Virus record (IMG/VR): IMGVR_UViG_2526164690_000052 | Length of the DNA: 37,501 nucleotides | Source of the DNA: a virus | Lineage: Duplodnaviria; Heunggongvirae; Uroviricota; Caudoviricetes | Direction: 5' to 3' (one strand) | Shown: positions 4,596 through 33,744 of the stretch, one piece after another | How the letters are laid out: each line of letters begins with the position of its first letter | How positions within the stretch are numbered: the first letter of the stretch is position 1 | Made by a program: the position numbers and the translations under genes | Notes under the pieces: generated by a model | The model's database searches: none | What the model was told of the DNA's origin: nothing | What the model saw: only the letters and a program-made list of their open reading frames with translations

Positions 4596-4985
4596 ATGAT
4601 TGACGCTCATGACTTCACAAGATGGGTGCGCACACAGGACACCCGTCTGGCTCCCGTTCTTCAGGGATTATTTGATCTCTACATCCGTGGTCGTGACAAC
4701 AGAGCACGCACCACAAAACCGGAGAATGCAGACACCCTTTATTTCACAGTAGACGACTGCTACCGCGTGGACTTCACACCACACGGGCTGGCGTTGCACT
4801 GCCTGACACCACACGGCGAATCACTGCTGGCGTATTACGACTCCCCGGCCTCCATATTTGCGGCAATGCTGGCGCATCGCACTGCTGGCGGGTGTGCCTC
4901 GCTGAGTGAATACTCCGCTGAATTTAACCGCCTTTCCGCCCTCTTCTCACAGGAGTGGCAGCGCGTGACGGGATACCAGCCATGA
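4596..4985 (+). CDS. Hypothetical protein immediately upstream of replication gene A
   Basis: 129-aa ORF; stop overlaps start of A. Confidence 0.45.
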   Translation: MIDAHDFTRWVRTQDTRLAPVLQGLFDLYIRGRDNRARTTKPENADTLYFTVDDCYRVDFTPHGLALHCLTPHGESLLAYYDSPASIFAAMLAHRTAGGCASLSEYSAEFNRLSALFSQEWQRVTGYQP

Positions 4986-7822
4986 GTGCGTTTGCATGGA
5001 GCTGGAATGAACCACGGCCAGCCATTGATCCGGCCAGATTTACGGAGCGCAGGCAGGAAACTGAAACCGACCTGCAACGCGCCATCCGTTACTACCTTGA
5101 GGCAAACAAAAGGGCACAGGAAGAACAGGAAGCGAAGGAAGAAGCCTTTTTCGCACAATCCACCGTGGGTAAAAAACTCATGGCATCCCTTGAGGAAGCC
5201 GGACAGCGTGAAAAGCTGGCACAAAGCATCATCAGCAAGCGTCAGGCAACAGAACAAGACCCGGTGGCCCGTGCTTTTGCCACACTGAAGGTGCTTCCCG
5301 TTTATCTGCGTGAACCTCTGAGCCGCCACCTCTCTTTTCTGCGCAAGAAGCAGGAAGCCGATCGTCAGAAAGGCAAAAAGAGCTGGCAGGCTGAACGCTA
5401 CGCGCGCGGAACCCTGCGCAAAATATTCGAACGTCTGGACCGCACCGACAGCCGCTGGCTGACACCGGGCTATCGCTCCCTTGCCGGACGCGAACGCCTG
5501 GACGATTTGCTTTACCTGCCGCAGCTCAACAAACACCAGATACAGACGCTGGCCACCATGACGGCGGCGATGTTCAGTGGCACTTTTGAAAAACTCTGCG
5601 ATGGCTTTGGCGCGACCGATGGCGAGCTGACCATGGATGTAACGCTGAAGGCGTATCAGATGCTGGCCCGCATGGCGTTACACCTGCACGCTATGCCTCC
5701 ACATTATGACGCTCTGACAACAGACAAAGACCGGAGGAATGAACCGGACACGGAGCTGCTGCCGGGCGCAATCCTTCGCCTGACCTGTGCGGAATGGTGG
5801 AAACGCAAACTGTGGCTGTTACGTTGCGAGTGGAGAGAAGAACAACTCCGCGCCGCCTGTCTGGTTTCCAGAAAAACATCACCCTATCTGAGCCAGGACG
5901 CGTTAAGCGAGTTTCGCGCACAGCGCGAGAAAACACGCGATTTCCTGAAAAGTTTCATGCTGGAAAACGAAGACGGGTTCACGATTGATCTCGAGACAGT
6001 GTATTACGCGGGAGTAAGTAACCCGATTCACCGTAAGGCAGAAATGATGGCCACCATGAAGGGGCTGGAACTTCTGGCCGAAGCCCGTGGCGACAGAGCG
6101 GTGTTTCTGACTGTCACCTGCCCGTCAAAATACCACGCCACAACAGAGAACGGTCATCCGAATCCCAAATGGAACGGGGCCACCATGCGCGACTCCAGCG
6201 ATTACCTGGTTAACACGTTTTTTGCGGCGGTCCGCAAGAAACTGAACCGCGACGGCCTGCGCTGGTATGGCATCCGCACGGTGGAGCCTCACCATGACGG
6301 CACCGTGCACTGGCATATGATGGTCTTTGCTCATCCGGAAGAAATCGACACCATTGTGTCCCACACCCGCGATATTGCCATTCAGGAAGACCGCCACGAG
6401 CTGGGCAATGATATTACTCCGCGCTTTAAGGTGGAGTATGTCGACGGCTCAAAAGGCACGCCAACCAGCTACATCGCCACCTACATCGGAAAGAACCTGG
6501 ACAGCCGCGCCGTGGATGGCATCGACCCGAAAACGGGCAAGCCACGCGTTGACCACGAAACCGGAAAATCAATGGCCGAGAGCGTGGAACGCGCCATCGG
6601 CTGGGCACGCCTTCACCGGGTCCGCCAGTTCCAGTTCTTTGGCATCCCCTCCCGTCAGGTATGGCGTGAACTCCGCCGCCTTGCCAGCCAGATGGCACGC
6701 AACCCGGAAGGCCCACAACGGCTGAAGGATGATGCAATGGATGCGGTACTCGCTGCCGCTGATGCCGGGTGTTTTGCCACCTACATTGAGAAACAGGGCG
6801 GCGTACTTGTTCCACGCAAAGACTACCTGATTCGCACCGCCTACGACCTCGCAGATGAGCTGAACGATTACGGCGAACAGAGCGTACAGATTTACGGGAT
6901 CTGGTCACCACTCATCGGGGAATCCTCCCGTGTGTGCACGCACTCGGATAACTGGAAGCTGGTAAGACGTAAACCGGAAGCGGAAGACAGCACCCGCGAA
7001 AATGGTTTTGACCTTCAGGGCGGCCCTGCCGCCACTTGGACTCGTGGCAATAACTGTCCCCGTGTACAGGAAACGGACAACAACGGGACAGAACAGCCGG
7101 AAGAAAGGCCAGCACCGTGGCCGCAGCTTCCTGACGGCGTTGACGTGAATGAATGGATGCGCTCACTGAAACGGCACGAACGCCGGGCGCTGATGCGTTC
7201 GCTGCGTGACAAACAGGCAAAAAACAGCAGTGATGAAATGCAGAACTGGACACAGAGCCGCAAACAGCCACGGCCTTTGCCTGATAACCACGAGTTACTC
7301 GCTAAAGAATGGCGGGAGTCTGCTGAATCTCTCGGCCTGCATATCGGTGAACAGCAGATGCAGCACCTGTTACGGGGCGGCAGTCTGTACGTTGACGGCA
7401 GCATCATTGCACCGCAGGGATTTGAAATTGTACGCAAACCAGATACCCGCCCGGACAGCCGAATCACGCAACTCTGGCAGCGCCTGAGCCGTAATCACGG
7501 CGTAAGCAGCACGGAGATCCGCCATAACCCGGTCGCCAGCTATCTGGAACAGCTGGGGGCATCAGACCCCGAAGCCGCCGCACACCTGGCATCCACACTT
7601 CAGCAGGACCAGAACACCATGAAAACCCCCGTTACCGTGCTTTCTGACATGCTGCGCGCCATCCGTGACGCAGTGCACGCACAGAGAATCAGTGAAACCA
7701 CTGAACGCGCCCACCGCAAAGCAGACCTGCTGCGGGGTAGCCTGACCAGTGGAAACAAAAAACAGACAGAAACGGGACTCACAAATCCCGTAAATGAGCA
7801 AAAAACGTGCCGCGATATATGA
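4982..7822 (+). CDS. A: Replication initiation endonuclease gpA (rolling-circle HUH nickase)
   Basis: about 946 aa; HUH-type motif TVEPHHDGTVHWHMMVF; overall resemblance to P2/186 A proteins; start uncertain (ATG 4982 or GTG 4955). Confidence 0.85.
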   Translation: MSAFAWSWNEPRPAIDPARFTERRQETETDLQRAIRYYLEANKRAQEEQEAKEEAFFAQSTVGKKLMASLEEAGQREKLAQSIISKRQATEQDPVARAFATLKVLPVYLREPLSRHLSFLRKKQEADRQKGKKSWQAERYARGTLRKIFERLDRTDSRWLTPGYRSLAGRERLDDLLYLPQLNKHQIQTLATMTAAMFSGTFEKLCDGFGATDGELTMDVTLKAYQMLARMALHLHAMPPHYDALTTDKDRRNEPDTELLPGAILRLTCAEWWKRKLWLLRCEWREEQLRAACLVSRKTSPYLSQDALSEFRAQREKTRDFLKSFMLENEDGFTIDLETVYYAGVSNPIHRKAEMMATMKGLELLAEARGDRAVFLTVTCPSKYHATTENGHPNPKWNGATMRDSSDYLVNTFFAAVRKKLNRDGLRWYGIRTVEPHHDGTVHWHMMVFAHPEEIDTIVSHTRDIAIQEDRHELGNDITPRFKVEYVDGSKGTPTSYIATYIGKNLDSRAVDGIDPKTGKPRVDHETGKSMAESVERAIGWARLHRVRQFQFFGIPSRQVWRELRRLASQMARNPEGPQRLKDDAMDAVLAAADAGCFATYIEKQGGVLVPRKDYLIRTAYDLADELNDYGEQSVQIYGIWSPLIGESSRVCTHSDNWKLVRRKPEAEDSTRENGFDLQGGPAATWTRGNNCPRVQETDNNGTEQPEERPAPWPQLPDGVDVNEWMRSLKRHERRALMRSLRDKQAKNSSDEMQNWTQSRKQPRPLPDNHELLAKEWRESAESLGLHIGEQQMQHLLRGGSLYVDGSIIAPQGFEIVRKPDTRPDSRITQLWQRLSRNHGVSSTEIRHNPVASYLEQLGASDPEAAAHLASTLQQDQNTMKTPVTVLSDMLRAIRDAVHAQRISETTERAHRKADLLRGSLTSGNKKQTETGLTNPVNEQKTCRDI

Positions 7823-7898
7823 AGCGCGCACAAAACAGGCAAAAGCGGGATTTAAAAATCCTGTAACCGATTAATTAATCAACACAAGGAAAAGCGAC

Positions 7899-8858
7899 AT
7901 GAAAATTTGTATCGACGACGGCTCCACCAACATCAAGCTGGCATGGACTGAGAACGGCGAACGCCGCAACGCCATCAGCCCGAACAGCTTCAAGTCGGAA
8001 TGGTCTGCGCCGTTCGGTGGCACGCAGCCCGCGAACTACATGCTTGATGGCGTGCGCTATGGTTTTGATCCGGTCAGCGATCGCTTTGTCCAGACGACCG
8101 ACACGCAATACCAGTACAGCGATGTGAATATAATTGCCATTCATCACGCGCTGGTCAAATCAGGCATCACACCACAGGAAGTGGATGTGGTTGTCACCCT
8201 GCCACTGAGCGAGTATTTCGATACAAACGCACAGCCGGACATGGCCAACATCAACCGCAAAAAAGCGAACGTCATGCGCCCGGTGGAGTACCAGAACGGC
8301 GAAGCATTCACTATCCGTAACGTACGGGTTATGCCTGAATCCATTCCGGCTGGCTTTAAGGCACTGGCTGACATGAGTCCGTTTGAATCCCTGCTGATTG
8401 TGGATTTGGGCGGAACCACTCTGGATGTGGCAAAGGTTCAGGGGCAACTGGCAGGTATCAGCCAGGTGTTTTGCGATCCACACGTGGGCGTTTCTCTGAT
8501 GGCCGATGCCGTACTGTCGGTGATGGCCACTAACGGTATGCGCACCAGTCACCACATCGCCAATACCATTATCGAACATCGCCATGATGAAGCCTGGCTG
8601 CGCCAGCACATCCACAATGACGCGCATTACGCCAGCCTGATGGCGGTTATTCGTGAAAAGGAAGAAACACTGAAACAACGCGTGATCCGCGCGCTGGCGG
8701 GTTTTTCGGGTTACGGGCGGGTGATGGTTGTCGGTGGAGGGGCGGAGATTGTGGCACCCGCTATCCGCGAAGCCTGCGGAGTTAATGCGACTTTCATCGC
8801 GGACGGGGTGCCACAGTTTGCTCTGGTTAATGGGCTGTACGCAATGGACAAGGAGTAA
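7899..8858 (+). CDS. parM: ParM/StbA-like actin-family segregation ATPase
   Basis: 319 aa; N-terminus MKICIDDGSTNIKLAW...ISPNSFKSEW and internal blocks (YSDVNIIAIHHAL, VMPESIPAG, DLGGTTLD, VGGGAE) match plasmid R1 ParM as recalled. Confidence 0.8.
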   Translation: MKICIDDGSTNIKLAWTENGERRNAISPNSFKSEWSAPFGGTQPANYMLDGVRYGFDPVSDRFVQTTDTQYQYSDVNIIAIHHALVKSGITPQEVDVVVTLPLSEYFDTNAQPDMANINRKKANVMRPVEYQNGEAFTIRNVRVMPESIPAGFKALADMSPFESLLIVDLGGTTLDVAKVQGQLAGISQVFCDPHVGVSLMADAVLSVMATNGMRTSHHIANTIIEHRHDEAWLRQHIHNDAHYASLMAVIREKEETLKQRVIRALAGFSGYGRVMVVGGGAEIVAPAIREACGVNATFIADGVPQFALVNGLYAMDKE

Positions 8859-8862
8859 ACCA

Positions 8863-9174
8863 ATGACGACTCCAACCAGACGGATAAGTTTCTATCTGAA
8901 GCCCACCGCCGTCAAGAACGAAGGAGAAGCATGCGCCTGGCTGGACAGCCTTACACCAGAAGCCCGCAAAAGCGGCCAACGCGTGGCTTTTCTGGCCGGG
9001 CTGGCACTTCTGAAAATGAATCCGGCAGAGGCTTATCGACTGGCTGCATGGGCTGGTGATGAAGCGTTATCAGTGACACAAACCAGGACAGAACGCCCCG
9101 CATCACAGCCAGTATCAACCGCACAGATAACCAGTCAGATGGCCGGAAATATCCGGGCGTTATTTCCTGAATAA
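8863..9174 (+). CDS. parR: ParR/StbB-like partition adaptor
   Basis: 103 aa from ATG 8863 (AGGAG 7 nt upstream); RRISFYLKP...AWLDSLTP...RVAFLAGLALL pattern resembles R1 ParR N-terminal RHH region; directly downstream of parM. Confidence 0.6.
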   Translation: MTTPTRRISFYLKPTAVKNEGEACAWLDSLTPEARKSGQRVAFLAGLALLKMNPAEAYRLAAWAGDEALSVTQTRTERPASQPVSTAQITSQMAGNIRALFPE

Positions 9175-9237: not shown

Positions 9238-9828
9238 ATGAGCGAAATCAACTATCAGGCATTACGTGAACGTTATTCACCTGTGCCAGTACCGAAATGC
9301 CCTATTTGCGGCGAGGAAATGTCAATTCAGCGAATATCTGGAGCACAGGTTGTTTATGCCTGCTCCGGTTATGGTGATGATGGAGATTTCAAAATTGGCC
9401 AAACTCTTGCCGACGAACATTATGAAAAATCACGCGTAACAGTGTTGGATGTCGGGGATCCTGAAGTATTGGCGCTACTTGATTGGCTGGAAACCAAAGA
9501 CAACCGAATCGCTGAACTGGAAAAAATCGCCACTGACTATGCACTTAAATTCCAGAAAGCACAGGACGCATTAAAGTATGCCGCTTTGCTGCATAGCAGG
9601 ACGGCGCAACAAACAAATAATTTTGCAGTATCGCTTCCGGACATAAGCGAATATTTCATTAATGACGTATTTCAGCCCTTGCGATACGAGCGGGATGTTG
9701 AAAGAGCCATCATAAAGGCTGGCGGAAAAGCATTGTGGCAGGAGAAACACGAGGACAGAACGCATCAGTCCTGCGATGTAAATCGTGGATGGTTTAGCCC
9801 ACTGACGACAGATAAAAATAACACCTGA
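9238..9828 (+). CDS. Hypothetical moron protein with N-terminal Cys-rich (zinc-ribbon-like) region
   Basis: 196 aa; KCPICGEEM...YACSGYG near N-terminus; AGGAG RBS; occupies the tin/old-equivalent variable locus between A and cos. Confidence 0.5.
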   Translation: MSEINYQALRERYSPVPVPKCPICGEEMSIQRISGAQVVYACSGYGDDGDFKIGQTLADEHYEKSRVTVLDVGDPEVLALLDWLETKDNRIAELEKIATDYALKFQKAQDALKYAALLHSRTAQQTNNFAVSLPDISEYFINDVFQPLRYERDVERAIIKAGGKALWQEKHEDRTHQSCDVNRGWFSPLTTDKNNT

Positions 9829-9840
9829 TCCCCCTCAAAC

Positions 9841-9866
9841 CAGGGCGATAATCGCGCATCGCCCTG
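9841..9866. terminator. Hairpin CAGGGCGAT-N8-ATCGCCCTG after the 196-aa gene
   Basis: 9-bp perfect inverted repeat; same stem core as hairpin at 9183-9200. Confidence 0.35.
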
Positions 9867-10317
9867 CTGCACAATAGTGCACAAGTTTGCACAATTTTTT
9901 TGAACGACTTTTTACCCTTCCGGCCCGCATGGCGGCTGGATCCGTCAAGGATCCGTGCGTGCACAAAAAAACGCGCTTTTTCTGCGCGCAGGTGACGGGG
10001 GAACAGCCCGCGTTTCAGGGGGTAAATAGCATCCCCTGAACGATGTCGCAGCGACACAACAGAATGGCTGTATTTCTCACGCTGAGCGTGAAAAAGACGT
10101 GAGGGCTTTTGATTTGATGGGTGGCAGATAAGGCCGTCAAAATCGCACTGAGGCGGCGAGAACATGCAGTCAACGCGGTGGGATTGCGTAAGAGTCTGAC
10201 CGCCGATGATGACAATAAGCAGAAAAGCGTCGTGAAATTATCTGATTGATACAGGAGCTGGAGAGTCGGGGCATAAATTTTTTATGCCCCGGCGAAGCAG
10301 CAGACAAGCGAAGCGCG
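9867..10317. other. cos / packaging-site region (candidate cohesive-end sequence near 9991-10009)
   Basis: non-coding stretch between accessory locus and 3' end of portal gene Q, the position of cos in P2-like genomes; dense in palindromes (CTGCGCGCAG 9982-9991) and phased repeats; GGTGACGGGGGAACAGCCC matches the P2 cohesive end as recalled at 13 of 19 positions. Confidence 0.4.
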
Positions 10318-11364
10318 TCAGGATGTGGGCTGGGTATCTAGCAGTGCGTAAGGGTTAAAGCGGATCACCTCTTCGCCAAGCCAGTCATTGATGTGCTTCA
10401 TGGCCTCCATGACGGGCATCAGCTCGTTAATTGCGTAAACCCGCGCGGCCTTCTCCACATCACCAAACGCACTTTTTTCGCCCGGCATCGCCCCCATCAG
10501 TTGCGGCGGAACGCGGTGCGCAGCCAGCACATCATCACGGGATGCCGCCTTAACATTCATGAACTCATCCTTTGCAGTGATCTGCTGGAACGGCAAAATT
10601 TGCACACCTTCTTTGCCCCCGTTGGGCGCATGGATGAGTACGTTTTTAAACGCACCACCACCACGCGCGCCCTGTAACGTTTCTTTCAGGGAGTCCATGC
10701 TTTCGCGGTTTACCTGCGCTGCACCGATGTAGATGATGCACCCGGCGTGGGATCCGTTGTCGTAGTACAGTTTTCTGAACATGTCCGCCGAATGAGAAAG
10801 GCTGGCCGAGAGTAATGCGCCAAGATATTCCGGCATGCCGTAGATTTCCTGGTTAATATCCGGATTCATCAGGTGGCACACTTTGCCAGGGCGAAACTGG
10901 AACGCGTCCTTGCCATCCTGCACATACCACCATGATTCAAGATCGCTTCCGCGTCGCATGTATTTCGCCAGGGCGTGCCGTAATTTAAGCGGTTCGCCGA
11001 GCATATTGCTTCTAAGCTCAAGGAATGCGTTACCGAACACAAACCAGTCCAGCGCCAGCGCCGAGAAATCCTGCCGGGAAAGCAGCGGGTGCGGGATGTA
11101 GCAACCGAGTAATACATTGCGCTTAAAGTAAAGCGCAGACTGATGCCAGGACGTTTGCCGGGCTGCTCTTGCCAGACCGTACCAGTCCACCGGGGTTTCA
11201 TACCACCGTCCGTTATCAGCACAGTACATATTGTCCAGCAGGTCATGCCCGGTCAGGCGATAAGGACCATCAAATGTGAATGCACTGAGCGATGATTCTT
11301 TCCTGAGCGCATCAGCGAGATCAATGCGTGAACTCATGCGCACTTTTTTATTTTTTCTGCTCAT
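10318..11364 (-). CDS. Q: Portal protein gpQ
   Basis: 348 aa; P2 Q-like sequence and synteny (Q-P leftward, overlapping P stop by ATGA). Confidence 0.9.
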   Translation of the reverse strand: MSRKNKKVRMSSRIDLADALRKESSLSAFTFDGPYRLTGHDLLDNMYCADNGRWYETPVDWYGLARAARQTSWHQSALYFKRNVLLGCYIPHPLLSRQDFSALALDWFVFGNAFLELRSNMLGEPLKLRHALAKYMRRGSDLESWWYVQDGKDAFQFRPGKVCHLMNPDINQEIYGMPEYLGALLSASLSHSADMFRKLYYDNGSHAGCIIYIGAAQVNRESMDSLKETLQGARGGGAFKNVLIHAPNGGKEGVQILPFQQITAKDEFMNVKAASRDDVLAAHRVPPQLMGAMPGEKSAFGDVEKAARVYAINELMPVMEAMKHINDWLGEEVIRFNPYALLDTQPTS

Positions 11365-13115
11365 CAGAACTCCATAACCGTGAAACGCTCGTTTTCTCCT
11401 TCGCCGCCAATCGGTTCGTTAATGACAGCAAGCATGGTTGCCCACGCAAGGTCGCCGTGGCTGATCCCCCTCGCGCGGTCCGTTTCGTAAGTGATAAAGC
11501 CGCCCGGTGTTTTCACCTTACGCACGGCGTTAAAGGCCGCGACCAGCTCGCGTTCGGCGCGATCGTATTCCCACCGCCCGGCACGCATTATTTGCAGCAT
11601 TTTCAGTACCAGCGACCGTTTTGATGACAGCGTGAAGGTGTACGGAATAGCAGCAGGGAAAAACCGTTTCACTATCTGATAAACAGCCTCCCCGTTCCCG
11701 CCCGTCACATCAATGCCGATGTGTTCCACGTTGTAGCGATACGTGAACTCTTCAATGACTCTGGCCTGTTCTTCAAACTCCAGCCCCTGAACGCGTCGCG
11801 TCTCCACCGTTCGAAAACGGCCACCAGGAACAGCCGGAGGAACCACCACGGACACAGCGCCGCTGTCGCCGTTGCCACTACTGCCGTTTGCGTCATACCC
11901 AATCCATACCGGACGATTCCCCATCGGGCGGGGAGCAAAAGGTTTCCAGTCTTTCCAGTCGTCGTATCCGTCAACACCGCAGCCAATCAGGATATTCAGG
12001 TTAAATGCCGATTCCCCTTCGCGGACAAACTCACACATATAGAGATTGAGGAACTCGTCTTCGGTGTTTTCATCACGAATTTCGTCGATATCGGTGTGTT
12101 TCCAGCCGTGATTGACCACATCTTCCAGCGTGACAATTTGCCGCCACGTCCGGTCAGGGCAGATAAGCCCGTTATGCAGCGTTTTCCAGTCCACAGAAAA
12201 ACGCTGGCGTTTATGCGTGGCCTTTTTCTCGTTCCAGCGGTCGCCGTTCCAGTAGGCGTATGCCTCGTGCGTTTCGGTGGATGGCGTGGAGAAGTAGGTG
12301 CGCCGCAGTCCGCTGAGGGTTGCCATAGCGCCAGCCACCTTGCGCAGTTCAGCAAAGCGACTGACCCAGAAAAATTCATCAAAATAAAAATTGCCCGTAT
12401 AGGACTGTGCCGACGCAGCAGAAGTGCCGAGAAAATGCAGCTCTGCGCCGTTGGAGAGGATGATTTTATCGCCCCCTTTCAGCTCCACATCAACTTCAGC
12501 CGCGGCCTTCTGAATAATGCTTTTAAACTGGAACGCCTGACGACGCGACGCAGACAAAAAAATCTGGTTACGCTGGTAAGGTTGCGCCACATCGTCACGC
12601 AGCGCCATCAGCAGAGCTTCCTGTGCAAAATACCAGGTCGCCCCAATCTGTCGGGATTTCAGGATCATCCTGTTACGTATCCCGGCTTCCCTGCAAAGGG
12701 TCAGGGAGTCAAACCAGCCCCGCTGATGCCACTCCAGCCTGCTGATGATTTTTTCCCGCAGTGCGGCAATCTGTTCCGGCGTGAAATGATTTTTGAGTTT
12801 TTTCGCCCGGCCTTTCTTTCCTGTGACCGTCGCATCCGGCTGGCCATCATGCAGTTTTTTAAGCTGCCGGGTCAGCAGGTCTATTTCCTTAAAGTCACCG
12901 CCTGTTTTATTCTGTTTTTCAGTAAGCTGGATGAGGCGCGCATCGATGGACTGCGTGACACGCTGCACGGGTGGCGTTTCATCCCACTGGTCGCGTTTTT
13001 TCCACGCATAAATCGTGTTCGGGTTTATTCCCATCAGACGTGATATTTCTGCGGGCGGATAACCCTGCCAGTAAAGTTGCCGCGCACGCTGGCGCACAAA
13101 AGCGTCCTGAATCAT
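11364..13115 (-). CDS. P: Terminase large (ATPase) subunit gpP
   Basis: 583 aa; P2 P-like; divergent from O across a 120-bp late promoter region. Confidence 0.9.
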   Translation of the reverse strand: MIQDAFVRQRARQLYWQGYPPAEISRLMGINPNTIYAWKKRDQWDETPPVQRVTQSIDARLIQLTEKQNKTGGDFKEIDLLTRQLKKLHDGQPDATVTGKKGRAKKLKNHFTPEQIAALREKIISRLEWHQRGWFDSLTLCREAGIRNRMILKSRQIGATWYFAQEALLMALRDDVAQPYQRNQIFLSASRRQAFQFKSIIQKAAAEVDVELKGGDKIILSNGAELHFLGTSAASAQSYTGNFYFDEFFWVSRFAELRKVAGAMATLSGLRRTYFSTPSTETHEAYAYWNGDRWNEKKATHKRQRFSVDWKTLHNGLICPDRTWRQIVTLEDVVNHGWKHTDIDEIRDENTEDEFLNLYMCEFVREGESAFNLNILIGCGVDGYDDWKDWKPFAPRPMGNRPVWIGYDANGSSGNGDSGAVSVVVPPAVPGGRFRTVETRRVQGLEFEEQARVIEEFTYRYNVEHIGIDVTGGNGEAVYQIVKRFFPAAIPYTFTLSSKRSLVLKMLQIMRAGRWEYDRAERELVAAFNAVRKVKTPGGFITYETDRARGISHGDLAWATMLAVINEPIGGEGENERFTVMEF

Positions 13116-15227: not shown

Positions 15228-16028
15228 ATGATTACTCCTGCACAACAACACTGGCAGAACGTGATGGCACAGCGCGCAGGCCGGGCGAATGAAGGTGTGG
15301 ACCACGCCGCGTGTACCGCGCATGAAGAAGTGCTGTATCGTCTGCGTCTGGCACAGGCCAGGCTAAAGGCCATACAGGCCAGAAGCGCGAAAGCCGCCAT
15401 CAAAAAAGAGTTGTTGCCGGACTTTTCCGGCTGGATTGAGGGAACGCTGGAGGCTGACGGCGGGCAACAGGACGAAGTAATTGCCACGCTGATGGTGTGG
15501 GCGATTGACTGCGGCGATCTTCCACTGGCGCTGCGTATTGGTGCATATGTGGTCCGTCACAACCTCATCATGCCGGATAACTTTGGCCGTACTGCTGCCA
15601 CGGTACTGACCGAAGAAATCTGCAACCCGGTACTGACGCAGGCTGGGACGGATGCCGACGCGGATTTATCCGCCTTTATCGAACCACTGGACACACTTTG
15701 GGAAATTGTCGCCAACCAGGACATTCCGGACGAAGTGCGCGCCAAATTATGCAAGGCGTGTGCCTTTGCCCGTCGTGGCCTGACCGATGCAGACAACATG
15801 GCCTCATCACTGAAGCTGCTGCGCGAAGCGATGCACCTGAACCCGAACGCAGGTGTGAAACGCGAGATTGCAACCCTTTCCCGCGCCCTGAAAAAAGCCG
15901 ATTCCGCAGCCGAACCAGAAGACGCCAGCGCACAGCAGGCGCAGGACGAAAGCAGCAAAAATAAAAAGACAACGCGGAAGCCTGCAACACGAAAAACCAC
16001 CGCGACGCAGAAGGCAAAGCGCGGTTAA
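15228..16028 (+). CDS. M: Terminase small (endonuclease) subunit gpM
   Basis: 266 aa; P2 M-like; synteny. Confidence 0.85.
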   Translation: MITPAQQHWQNVMAQRAGRANEGVDHAACTAHEEVLYRLRLAQARLKAIQARSAKAAIKKELLPDFSGWIEGTLEADGGQQDEVIATLMVWAIDCGDLPLALRIGAYVVRHNLIMPDNFGRTAATVLTEEICNPVLTQAGTDADADLSAFIEPLDTLWEIVANQDIPDEVRAKLCKACAFARRGLTDADNMASSLKLLREAMHLNPNAGVKREIATLSRALKKADSAAEPEDASAQQAQDESSKNKKTTRKPATRKTTATQKAKRG

Positions 16029-32643: not shown

Positions 32644-33744
32644 ATGACCGATACCACCATGCAATTGCTCAGTCAGAGCACAGACCCCGTGAAAATGCCG
32701 GATTTTGATATTCTCGCGGAGGGGGAAACACTGTCCGGCGTGGCAGAGCGCCTGATGAGCCTGTCACTGACCGACAACCGGGGATTTGAAGCGGACCTGC
32801 TCACCATCACGCTGGATGATGCGGATGGTCAGTTGCAGCTACCGCCACGGGGCGCGCGCCTGACGGTTCTCATTGGCTGGAAAGGAGAACCGCTGACAGA
32901 AAAAGGCACTTACATTGTTGATGAAATCGCTCACGAAGGACCGCCGGACAGGCTGACTGTTTCAGCCAGAAGCGCAGATTTTCGGGATGAATTTAACGTT
33001 AAACGTGAGGTGTCCTGGCATGATGTGACCGTTGAGCGCGTGGTATCCGCCATCGCTCATCGGTACGGTCTGAAACCACAAATCAGCGAAATGCTGATGG
33101 ATATTGAAATCGACCACGCCGACCAGACCGAAGAAAGCGACATGTCCTTCCTTACGCGCATGGCGGAAATGCTGGGCGCAATCACTACGGTAAAAAGCAG
33201 TAATCTGTTATTCATCATGCCAGGCGGTGGCGTGAACGCACAGGGCCAGCCGTTGCCATCGTTCGCCATCACGCGCAGCAGTGGCGATCGCCATCAGTTC
33301 CGCATTGCTGACCGCGAAGCGTATACGGGGGTACGTGCTTACTGGCTTGATCTTAATTACGGGAAAAAGAAAAAAGTCAGCGTGAAACGCCGCAAACCGA
33401 AAAAGGAGAAAAGCAGCAGCCGTGAAGGTGACTATATGGAAGGTGCGGAAGGCAACGTGTTTGTGTTACGCAAGACTTATCAGAACGAGCAGGCAGCAAG
33501 ACGTGCAGCGGCGGCAAAGTGGCAGCAGCTACAACGCGGAGCCGCATCATTCTCCATCACGCTGGCGCGTGGACGCGCAGAACTCTATCCCGAAATGCAT
33601 GGCACGGTGACAGGCTTCAAAAGTGACATCGATAATCAGGACTGGATTATTGCAAAAGCCGAGCACACCATTGATAACAGCGGCTTTACCACACAGCTTG
33701 AGCTTGAAGCAAAAATCCCGGAATGGATAGCAGAAACAGAATGA
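32644..33744 (+). CDS. D: Tail protein / late control protein gpD
   Basis: start ATG 32644 after AGGGAGGG RBS; LTDNRGFEAD, RSADFR, SWHD, GDRHQFRIADREAYTGV, DNSGFTTQLELE blocks are P2 D-like; divergent from FI. Confidence 0.85.
   Translation: MTDTTMQLLSQSTDPVKMPDFDILAEGETLSGVAERLMSLSLTDNRGFEADLLTITLDDADGQLQLPPRGARLTVLIGWKGEPLTEKGTYIVDEIAHEGPPDRLTVSARSADFRDEFNVKREVSWHDVTVERVVSAIAHRYGLKPQISEMLMDIEIDHADQTEESDMSFLTRMAEMLGAITTVKSSNLLFIMPGGGVNAQGQPLPSFAITRSSGDRHQFRIADREAYTGVRAYWLDLNYGKKKKVSVKRRKPKKEKSSSREGDYMEGAEGNVFVLRKTYQNEQAARRAAAAKWQQLQRGAASFSITLARGRAELYPEMHGTVTGFKSDIDNQDWIIAKAEHTIDNSGFTTQLELEAKIPEWIAETE

Follow-up and report, generated by a model that had tools for sequence, protein, structure and literature searches.

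A four-word repeat array and a G-rich core as the probable packaging (cos) site of a P88-like, P2-family prophage

This work concerns positions 9868-10009 of a 37,501-nt stretch of viral DNA (IMG/VR record IMGVR_UViG_2526164690_000052; Caudoviricetes). The whole stretch, hereafter the window, holds a prophage of the P2 family, P88-like group (Xuanwuvirus). The segment is very probably the cos site of this prophage, the place at which its DNA is recognized and cut for packaging. It would comprise two parts: four direct copies of the word TGCACAA (R1-R4), three at 10-bp steps and the fourth 72 bp further on across a spacer of free sequence, and a G-rich cutting site approximately 30 bp past R4, where the terminase nuclease would stagger its nicks to leave a cohesive end of about 19 nt. 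A first-pass annotation, made from the sequence alone, had already proposed a cos region here, with a partition centromere as the alternative. The cos reading is supported by the map position, by a word geometry identical to that of the experimentally defined cos sites of P2, 186 and P4, by conservation, by intermediate forms, and by satellites that share only this block with the phages. In itself the block is an ordinary P2-type cos; what comes on top are the fixed four-word geometry shared across the family, a word that is specific to the lineage, and the use that two kinds of satellites make of the array.

The three phased words described in the first-pass annotation (starting at 9868, 9878 and 9888) and the T-run behind them, a tract of seven T at 9895-9901, are indeed present (coordinates of all features are collected in Table 1). 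TGCACAA as such is not enriched, with nine copies in the window against 9.4 expected. Four of these nine copies fall within 99 bp, and R1-R3 form the sole exact 7-mer triple with 10-bp phasing in the 37.5 kb; none arose in 200 shuffles. R4 was absent from the first-pass annotation and lies exactly 72 bp after R3.

The block is located between the gpA-type replication gene with its cargo and the 3' end of the portal gene, upstream of the terminator of the portal (Q) gene. The annotated cos sites of P2 and 186 occupy the same location, just past the 3' end and terminator of the portal gene. A two-subunit terminase of the gpM/gpP type, as in other members of the P2 family, is encoded nearby; beyond the large terminase, the gene order continues with scaffold, capsid, gpM and gpL. 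Alignments with other P88-like phages start at 9867/9868, i.e. at the first base of R1, and the cargo upstream of R1 differs from one P88-like phage to another. This start of similarity agrees with the published cargo hotspot between gpA and gpQ, which is directly adjacent to cos (PMC9122126). The stretch 9868-10318 was found in 1,142 of 5,426 complete E. coli genomes.

Comparison with the cos sites of P2, 186 and P4 reveals the same geometry with a different word. Counted from the top-strand nick, TGCAT words stand at -123, -111, -101 and -29 in P2 (annotated cos) and at -124, -111, -101 and -29 in P4 and 186 (annotated or record-defining nick). The distance from the third to the fourth word is 72 bp in all three, and their spacers are mutually unalignable. 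In the window, the spacings are 10, 10 and 72 bp, and R1-R3 are found at -121, -111 and -101 when the nick is set at R4+29, or at -123, -113 and -103 when counted from 9991. The window thus has the three extra word copies at about -121/-124, -111 and -101, a pattern that was derived here from P2, 186, P4 and 76 P4-like satellites (see below) and that is not part of the published cos definition.

P2, 186 and P4 are described as having 19-nt 5' cohesive ends, and a highly conserved 55-bp P2/P4 cos is attributed to Ziermann & Calendar 1990 (PMC9594776, PMC3931495, PMC5694545). The 29 nt between the fourth word and the nick, the 19-nt end and 7 nt beyond it add up to 29 + 19 + 7 = 55 bp, which implies that the fourth word opens the published core. 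R4 corresponds to TGCATTAAAA, the opening element of that core, and R1-R3 sit 72-95 bp outside it; the upstream word array appears to be little described. The architecture of the core recurs in the window, with R4 and its A-run, a palindromic segment, the 19-mer at +31 and CTGCGCGCA on its left.

Further features are common to the window and to P2, 186 and P4: the map order of cargo hotspot, cos and portal 3' end, the gpM and gpP terminase, words at -111, -101 and -29, a palindrome between the fourth word and the nick, a G-rich end with the pattern GGYGA..CGGGG(G)AA.AGC, and GCGCGC flanking the cut. They differ in the word, which is TGCACAA in the window and TGCAT(G/T) in the others, in the R1-R2 distance (10 bp versus 12-13), in the side of GCGCGC, which is left of the end in the window and right of it in the others, and in that the end of the window is predicted. 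The palindromes of P2, P4 and 186 in the place of 9972-9990 also have other sequences (CCGCCCC..GGGCGG; GACCCA..TGGGCA). As a separate observation, the three distal words of P2 (33452-33478) overlap positions -26 to -54 of the old/tin promoter (starts at 33424/33426), which suggests that a cargo promoter was built on top of the packaging array.

Conservation separates the block into fixed and free parts. Across 100 distinct sequences of the TGCACAA class, the conserved stretches (mostly ≥90%) are 9868-9902, 9960-9971 and GCGCGCAGGTGACGGGGGAACAGCCC at 9984-10009; R1-R3 are conserved at 90-98%, and the spacer varies. Enterobacter phage phiT5282H (Novemvirus) has only these conserved stretches in common with the window, and its similarity ends at approximately 10012. 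The T tract after R3, which may act as an intrinsic bend, is not family-wide, as P2 and 186 have none at that place. The GGATCCGT repeat that the first-pass annotation highlighted exists, although not at 9929-9948 and not 12 bp apart: the copies start at 9938 and 9949, 11 bp from start to start. Nor is it a conserved element. It was rejected as a functional repeat because conservation of its first copy is poor and neither copy occurs in the Enterobacter clade (phiT5282H-type) or in the capsid-encoding satellites described below; the second copy preserves little beyond GATC across relatives. We therefore regard it as clade-specific spacer sequence.

A scan of IMG/VR for the triple repeat returned at least 120 contigs. 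Among the matches listed, the portal gene follows the block wherever the downstream sequence suffices, with L112 as the single exception. L112 and a further locus, L372, retain an intact cos block and downstream terminator and have no portal gene within 2-7 kb downstream; both are probably decayed or rearranged prophages.

At the right end of the block, the palindrome CTGCGCGCAG and the candidate end GGTGACGGGGGAACAGCCC are both present where the first-pass annotation had placed them, and the likeness of the latter to the P2 cohesive end that was noted there holds as well. GGTGACGGGGGAACAGCCC is G-rich, 19 nt long and shares 13 of its 19 nt with the P2 end GGCGAGGCGGGGAAAGCAC in an ungapped alignment; a 2-nt gap gives the better alignment, GGYGA(GG)CGGGG(G)AA.AGC. 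The experimentally determined end of phiRSA1, a P2-family phage of Ralstonia and thus of another host group, is GGTGAGGCGGGGTCCAAC; it begins GGTGAGGCGGGG, close to the GGTGACGGGGG of the window (PMC5694545). The self-complementary segment between R4 and the predicted end is not significant as an RNA hairpin (z = -1.4). Judged from the sequence context GCGCGCA^GG, which is common to the intermediates described next, the top strand would be nicked at 9990/9991 or, if the R4+29 rule is followed, at 9988/9989, within ±2-3 nt. The first position is favoured. With an overhang of 19 nt, the bottom strand is predicted to be nicked near 10009/10010.

In four loci, TGCACAA-type words are followed at +29 from the fourth word by GGCGAGGCGGGGGAGCAAG (or ..GCAAT); these are L046, L140 (Yokenella), L144 (Klebsiella michiganensis) and L148 (Morganella). 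The central CGGGGG begins 36 nt past the fourth word in both these intermediates and the window type, and with this common register the intermediates form a bridge between the P2 end and the end of the window. As they pair TGCACAA words with a P2-like end, the word type and the end type can change independently, and the GGTGAC... end of the window appears to have arisen secondarily within the TGCACAA lineage.

To what extent the array is general to the family was examined in a diverse set of 80 P2-like prophage loci gathered by their portal protein, of which 78 were searched. The region downstream of the portal gene was searched blindly for any 5-mer with three occurrences spaced 9-13 bp apart and one more 55-95 bp further on. 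Such arrays were detected in 18 of the 78 loci compared to one in 1,560 shuffles, and in 22 of the 32 word matches the distance to the fourth copy measured 72 bp; a mismatch-tolerant scan agreed. Loci with a portal ≥54% identical to that of the window belong to the TGCACAA class (10, 10, 72), and the TGCATG class (13, 10, 72) is P2/186-like. Three loci, from Rhodocyclaceae, Paracandidimonas and a groundwater gammaproteobacterial metagenome-assembled genome, carry three copies of GTTAC(C)/TTACG spaced by 12 and 10 bp and more copies 67/76 bp on; no recognizable P2-like G-rich core follows the GTTAC words in these loci. Tentatively, GTTAC (12, 10, 67/76) is a third word class, represented by three betaproteobacterial or unclassified loci.

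Satellites provide a different line of evidence. Among 76 P4-like satellites gathered through Psu, 69 have TGCAT at exactly -124, -111, -101 and -29, and the 76 carry 37 distinct spacers of equal length. Their similarity covers R1 through the seventh nucleotide beyond the cohesive end; there they diverge and their own cargo hotspot starts. That similarity ends so soon after the end indicates that everything required by the terminase is located on the side of the cut that carries the words. This collection contained satellites of the TGCAT type only and none of the TGCACAA type. A metagenome scan with the 19-mer yielded 115 loci, about 100 of which have the array; the offsets are -123, -113, -103 and -31 in 83 loci and one base less in nine. 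About ten of the loci are chance matches inside unrelated GC-rich genes. Five of the loci contain the whole array and core and neither portal nor terminase.

These five loci represent a second kind of satellite, an island with its own capsid gene. Its order is a P4-type integrase, an 889-residue Toprim primase, a second recombinase, the cos block, a 236-240-residue coiled-coil protein and a capsid protein; the latter is a P2-family major capsid protein (PF05125), 35-37% identical to gpN of the window. The E. coli island measures approximately 12.5 kb (NZ_CP080233.1, 927251-939800) and also has genes for an Icd-like protein, between integrase and primase, and for an Ogr/Delta-like zinc finger, between the cos block and the coiled-coil protein. 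It was detected at ≥80% coverage in 57 of the 5,426 complete E. coli genomes. What it has in common with P88-like phages runs only from R1 to about 18 nt past the 19-mer, and it does not have GGATCCGT. These islands look like satellites of P88-like phages that encode their own capsid protein. Two unrelated satellite kinds keep exactly the array and core, and islands that share only this block with the phages provide independent support for the array and core as the packaging address. No description of the capsid-encoding island was found in a limited literature search, which does not establish its novelty.

From these comparisons, a wider proposal can be put forward, to which we assign a little less than an even chance. 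The full P2-family signal would be a rigid four-word array (-124/-121, -111, -101, -29), of which the published 55-bp core covers only half. The word would be a lineage address (TGCACAA in P88-like phages, TGCATG in P2, 186 and P4, possibly GTTAC in betaproteobacterial relatives) that sets the specificity between helper and satellite, and it would be exploited by an as yet undescribed, P4-sized, capsid-encoding E. coli satellite.

Mechanistically, the terminase would bind all four words from approximately the same side of the helix, and this binding would probably bend or wrap the spacer, so that the nuclease is placed at a measured distance, as lambda terminase measures from the R sites of cosB. 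The word is specific to the lineage (TGCACAA versus TGCAT(G) in P2, 186 and P4), which suggests that it acts as an address for the phage's own terminase. Such an address would separate the phage's own DNA from that of other P2-like phages, and satellites would copy it.

The small terminase (gpM) is the conventional candidate for cos recognition. The large terminase, for its part, has an N-terminal helix-turn-helix (residues 6-63, PF06056/HTH_23), which within the TGCACAA class is conserved at 75-87%, compared to 62-78% elsewhere in the protein. The putative recognition helix of this domain has the sequence N-T-[ILV]-Y-[AS]-W in phages with GCACA words, including distant Xenorhabdus and Morganella loci, and [AP]-T-V-[HQ]-S-W in phages with TGCATG words (the set of loci L131-L210); the loci with GTTAC words also have H in this helix. 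The words may be read by gpM, by the N-terminal helix-turn-helix of gpP, or by both.

The words of the window have no known relation to the R sites of lambda, and the DNA-binding parts of the two systems show no sequence or protein homology. The small subunit here is of the gpM type (PF05944) and not a gpNu1-like winged helix-turn-helix protein. The lambda cos is laid out as cosQ-cosN-I2-cosB, with R3, I1, R2 and R1 in cosB, and its terminase cuts 47±2 bp from an R site, the spacing between binding and nicking being critical (PMC4856287). Cohesive ends, and a thrice-repeated sequence beside the nicking site that is bound by terminase, are features of lambda and would be so here. The R sites of lambda are in mixed orientation and need a bend by IHF, whereas the window has four direct words with a 72-bp gap and no IHF site: the consensus WATCAANNNNTTR has no match with ≤1 mismatch in 9860-10020. 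HK97 is likewise a cos phage with a short specific small-terminase sequence near its cut site; there, the small terminase uses a single minimal site that is read as the DNA emerges from the tunnel of the terminase ring (PMC11331095). Four spaced words, unlike the single site of HK97, suggest multi-point binding or wrapping.

Several points weigh against the cos reading or its details. The 19-mer begins 31 nt past R4, compared to 29 nt in P2, 186, P4 and the intermediates, which makes the nick position uncertain by 2 nt. No record starts or stops at the predicted nick among 50,697 phage records searched by BLAST with the 65-nt core, and no viral contig ends there among the IMG/VR triple-repeat matches listed. 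Two metagenome contigs stop 3 and 22 nt past the 19-mer; these are likely assembly breaks, as they stop where the similarity between phages and satellites ends. Indels occur inside 9990-10011 in the phages Chuche (-7 nt), P88_4B11 (-5 nt and A>G) and 500465-2 (+1 G). If real, they could amount to more change than a strict 19-nt cos end would tolerate. Indels of this type are absent from all compared prophage, viral and metagenome-contig sequences, and the record of 500465-2 is of low quality, with the portal split into three coding sequences. The indels may be assembly artefacts at virion termini, in which case they would support the placement of the end. The 72 bp between R3 and R4 correspond to 6.9 turns at 10.5 bp per turn, so that the words share one face only approximately. 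The proteins named above as readers are candidates only, and the co-variation between the word and the helix-turn-helix of the large terminase is a hint only, as it is confounded by phylogeny. Finally, our literature search found no paper on the cos of a P88-like phage.

Among the other explanations, the one that survives best accepts 9960-10009 as cos and takes R1-R3 for an operator or promoter of the cargo hotspot or for a recombination boundary. In its favour, the published 55-bp core begins with R4 and closes 7 nt beyond the cohesive end, R1 stands right at the boundary of the hotspot, and in P2 the old transcript starts 26-28 nt from R1, with the equivalent words overlapping the promoter region as described above. 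The word of R1-R3 and its distances from the nick are, however, kept beside any cargo, in either orientation and in many phage genera, as well as beside psu in P4-like satellites and beside the recombinase in capsid-encoding satellites. Moreover, the word of R1-R3 is always that of R4, which lies inside the accepted core, and this argues for one reader of all four. We consider this division of the block improbable.

Less likely still is a role for a host architectural protein (IHF, Fis or similar) as reader of the array, or an action by intrinsic curvature alone. The T7 and A7 tracts flanking the spacer and the use of IHF between the R sites of lambda cosB (PMC4856287) would fit such a role. 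These A/T tracts are not general to the P2 family, however, the IHF consensus is missing from the block, and among hosts of the same family the word follows the packaging lineage of the phage (TGCACAA, TGCATG, possibly GTTAC), which is unexpected for the site of a host factor.

The elements could also be transcription terminators or insulators, R2-R3 with the T7 tract stopping rightward transcription from the cargo and the GCGCGC hairpin with the A-run stopping leftward transcription of the portal operon, so that the repeats would matter only as stems. A consensus scan does flag terminator-like sequences on the plus strand (9877-9892 followed by T7) and on the minus strand (9989-9971 followed by T7), and neighbouring words can pair, as TGCA is self-complementary. 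Folding speaks against intrinsic terminators: the R2/R3 stem reaches -6.1 kcal/mol with z = +0.34, and the minus-strand hairpin 9958-9995 has z = -1.4, whereas the three hairpins flanking the block clearly beat their shuffles (Table 1). In addition, the words of P2 and 186 are present without a T-run after R3, and three words, the fixed 72-bp spacing across unrelated spacers and the retention by satellites are left unexplained. Both candidate terminators, R2-R3 with T7 and the hairpin on the R4 side, were rejected on the shuffled folding controls, and we hold this explanation to be slightly less credible than a host-protein site.

The least credible explanation is the centromere that the first-pass annotation had considered, a parC-like site bound by ParR: a ParM and a ParR/StbB-like gene lie 0.7-2 kb upstream and short iterated words on one helix face are typical of centromeres, but no ParM accompanies the repeats in 21 of the 67 related loci in which gpA lies upstream of them (among the matches listed, in which the portal gene follows the repeats as stated above), in phiT5282H the array directly follows the gpA-side gene with no annotated gene between, equivalent arrays occur without ParMR in P2, 186, P4 and the 76 satellites, another gene stands between parR and the repeats, which are 0.7 kb downstream of it, where a type II centromere (parC of ParMRC) would be expected immediately upstream of parM-parR, and the par locus has a candidate centromere of its own in the canonical place just upstream of parM, a pair of 38-nt repeats at 7756-7793 and 7829-7866.

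With the cos reading, the annotation of this part of the window would be settled, 9868-10009 being the packaging site of a prophage family present in about one fifth of complete E. coli genomes, and a prediction of the virion ends follows. P2/P4 cosmids are under construction as antimicrobial delivery vehicles, and according to a published report, longer flanks around the 55-bp cos might aid transduction (PMC9594776). The missing part has an obvious candidate in the word array, 72-95 bp outside the core. Should the word determine specificity, a cosmid or satellite in which it is exchanged is expected to change from a P2/186 helper to a P88-like one, and this would also explain which satellites can use which prophages.

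Table 1. Features of the window in and around the predicted cos site.
Feature	Position	Strand	Remarks
gpA-type replication protein	4955-7822		
ParM	7899-8858		
ParR/StbB-like gene	8728-9174		
Ead/Ea22 cargo gene	9238-9828		
Stem-loop CAGGGCGAT..ATCGCCCTG closing Ead/Ea22	9841-9866	+	-15.6 kcal/mol, z = -4.1
R1, R2, R3 (TGCACAA)	9868-9874, 9878-9884, 9888-9894	+	exact 10-bp spacing
T7 tract directly after R3	9895-9901	+	conserved within TGCACAA class
R3-R4 spacer	9902-9959	+	fixed length, variable sequence
Imperfect palindrome CCGGCCCGCATGGCGGCTGG in spacer	9920-9939		
GGATCCGT, two copies in spacer	9938-9945, 9949-9956		
R4 (TGCACAA) with A-run	9960-9971	+	word 9960-9966, A-run to 9971
Self-complementary CGCGC / T-run / CTGCGCGCA segment	9972-9990	+	between R4 and predicted nick
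Palindrome CTGCGCGCAG	9982-9991		
Predicted cohesive end GGTGACGGGGGAACAGCCC	9991-10009	+	from homology and near invariance
Stem-loop right of predicted end	10011-10042	+	-16.7 kcal/mol, z = -3.7
Terminator-like hairpin CGGGGCATAAA..TTTATGCCCCG after portal	10267-10291	-	-17.6 kcal/mol, z = -4.9
Portal protein, gpQ homologue	10318-11364	-	PF04860; 45% identity to P2 Q
Terminase large subunit, gpP homologue	11364-13115	-	PF03237, PF17289, PF06056, HTH_23
Terminase small subunit, gpM homologue	15228-16028	+	PF05944, E = 7e-37

The stem-loop that closes the Ead/Ea22 gene is the last element of the variable hotspot, and similarity among P88-like phages begins right after it. Only the E. coli clade has the stem-loop to the right of the predicted end; the similarity of distant phages and of satellites ends inside or before it. 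The hairpin behind the portal gene is the counterpart of the annotated terminators tQ of P2 and tW of 186. No known RNA family was found in 9700-10400 at E ≤ 1 (Rfam), and a scan of the block region for sigma-70-like promoters found no candidate.

Between the predicted end and this terminator, 10011-10266 (about 250 nt) is conserved in E. coli P88-like phages and absent in P2, 186 and phiT5282H-type phages; the record of P88 annotates two small open reading frames (gp21 and gp22) in its counterpart. At the gpA end of the par locus, the two 38-nt direct repeats, 73 bp apart and both with an internal inverted repeat (CGGGAyT..AAATCCyG), are candidates for the parC or operator of ParMR. Lastly, a 451-nt block 100% identical to that of the window is also present in E. 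coli E2865, RM6927 and others. A contig labelled Vagococcus sp. WN89Y (NZ_JBQPOM010000071.1) encodes a portal 100% identical to that of the window and has the same cos block; its place in an assembly of the Gram-positive Vagococcus is probably due to contamination or mislabelling.

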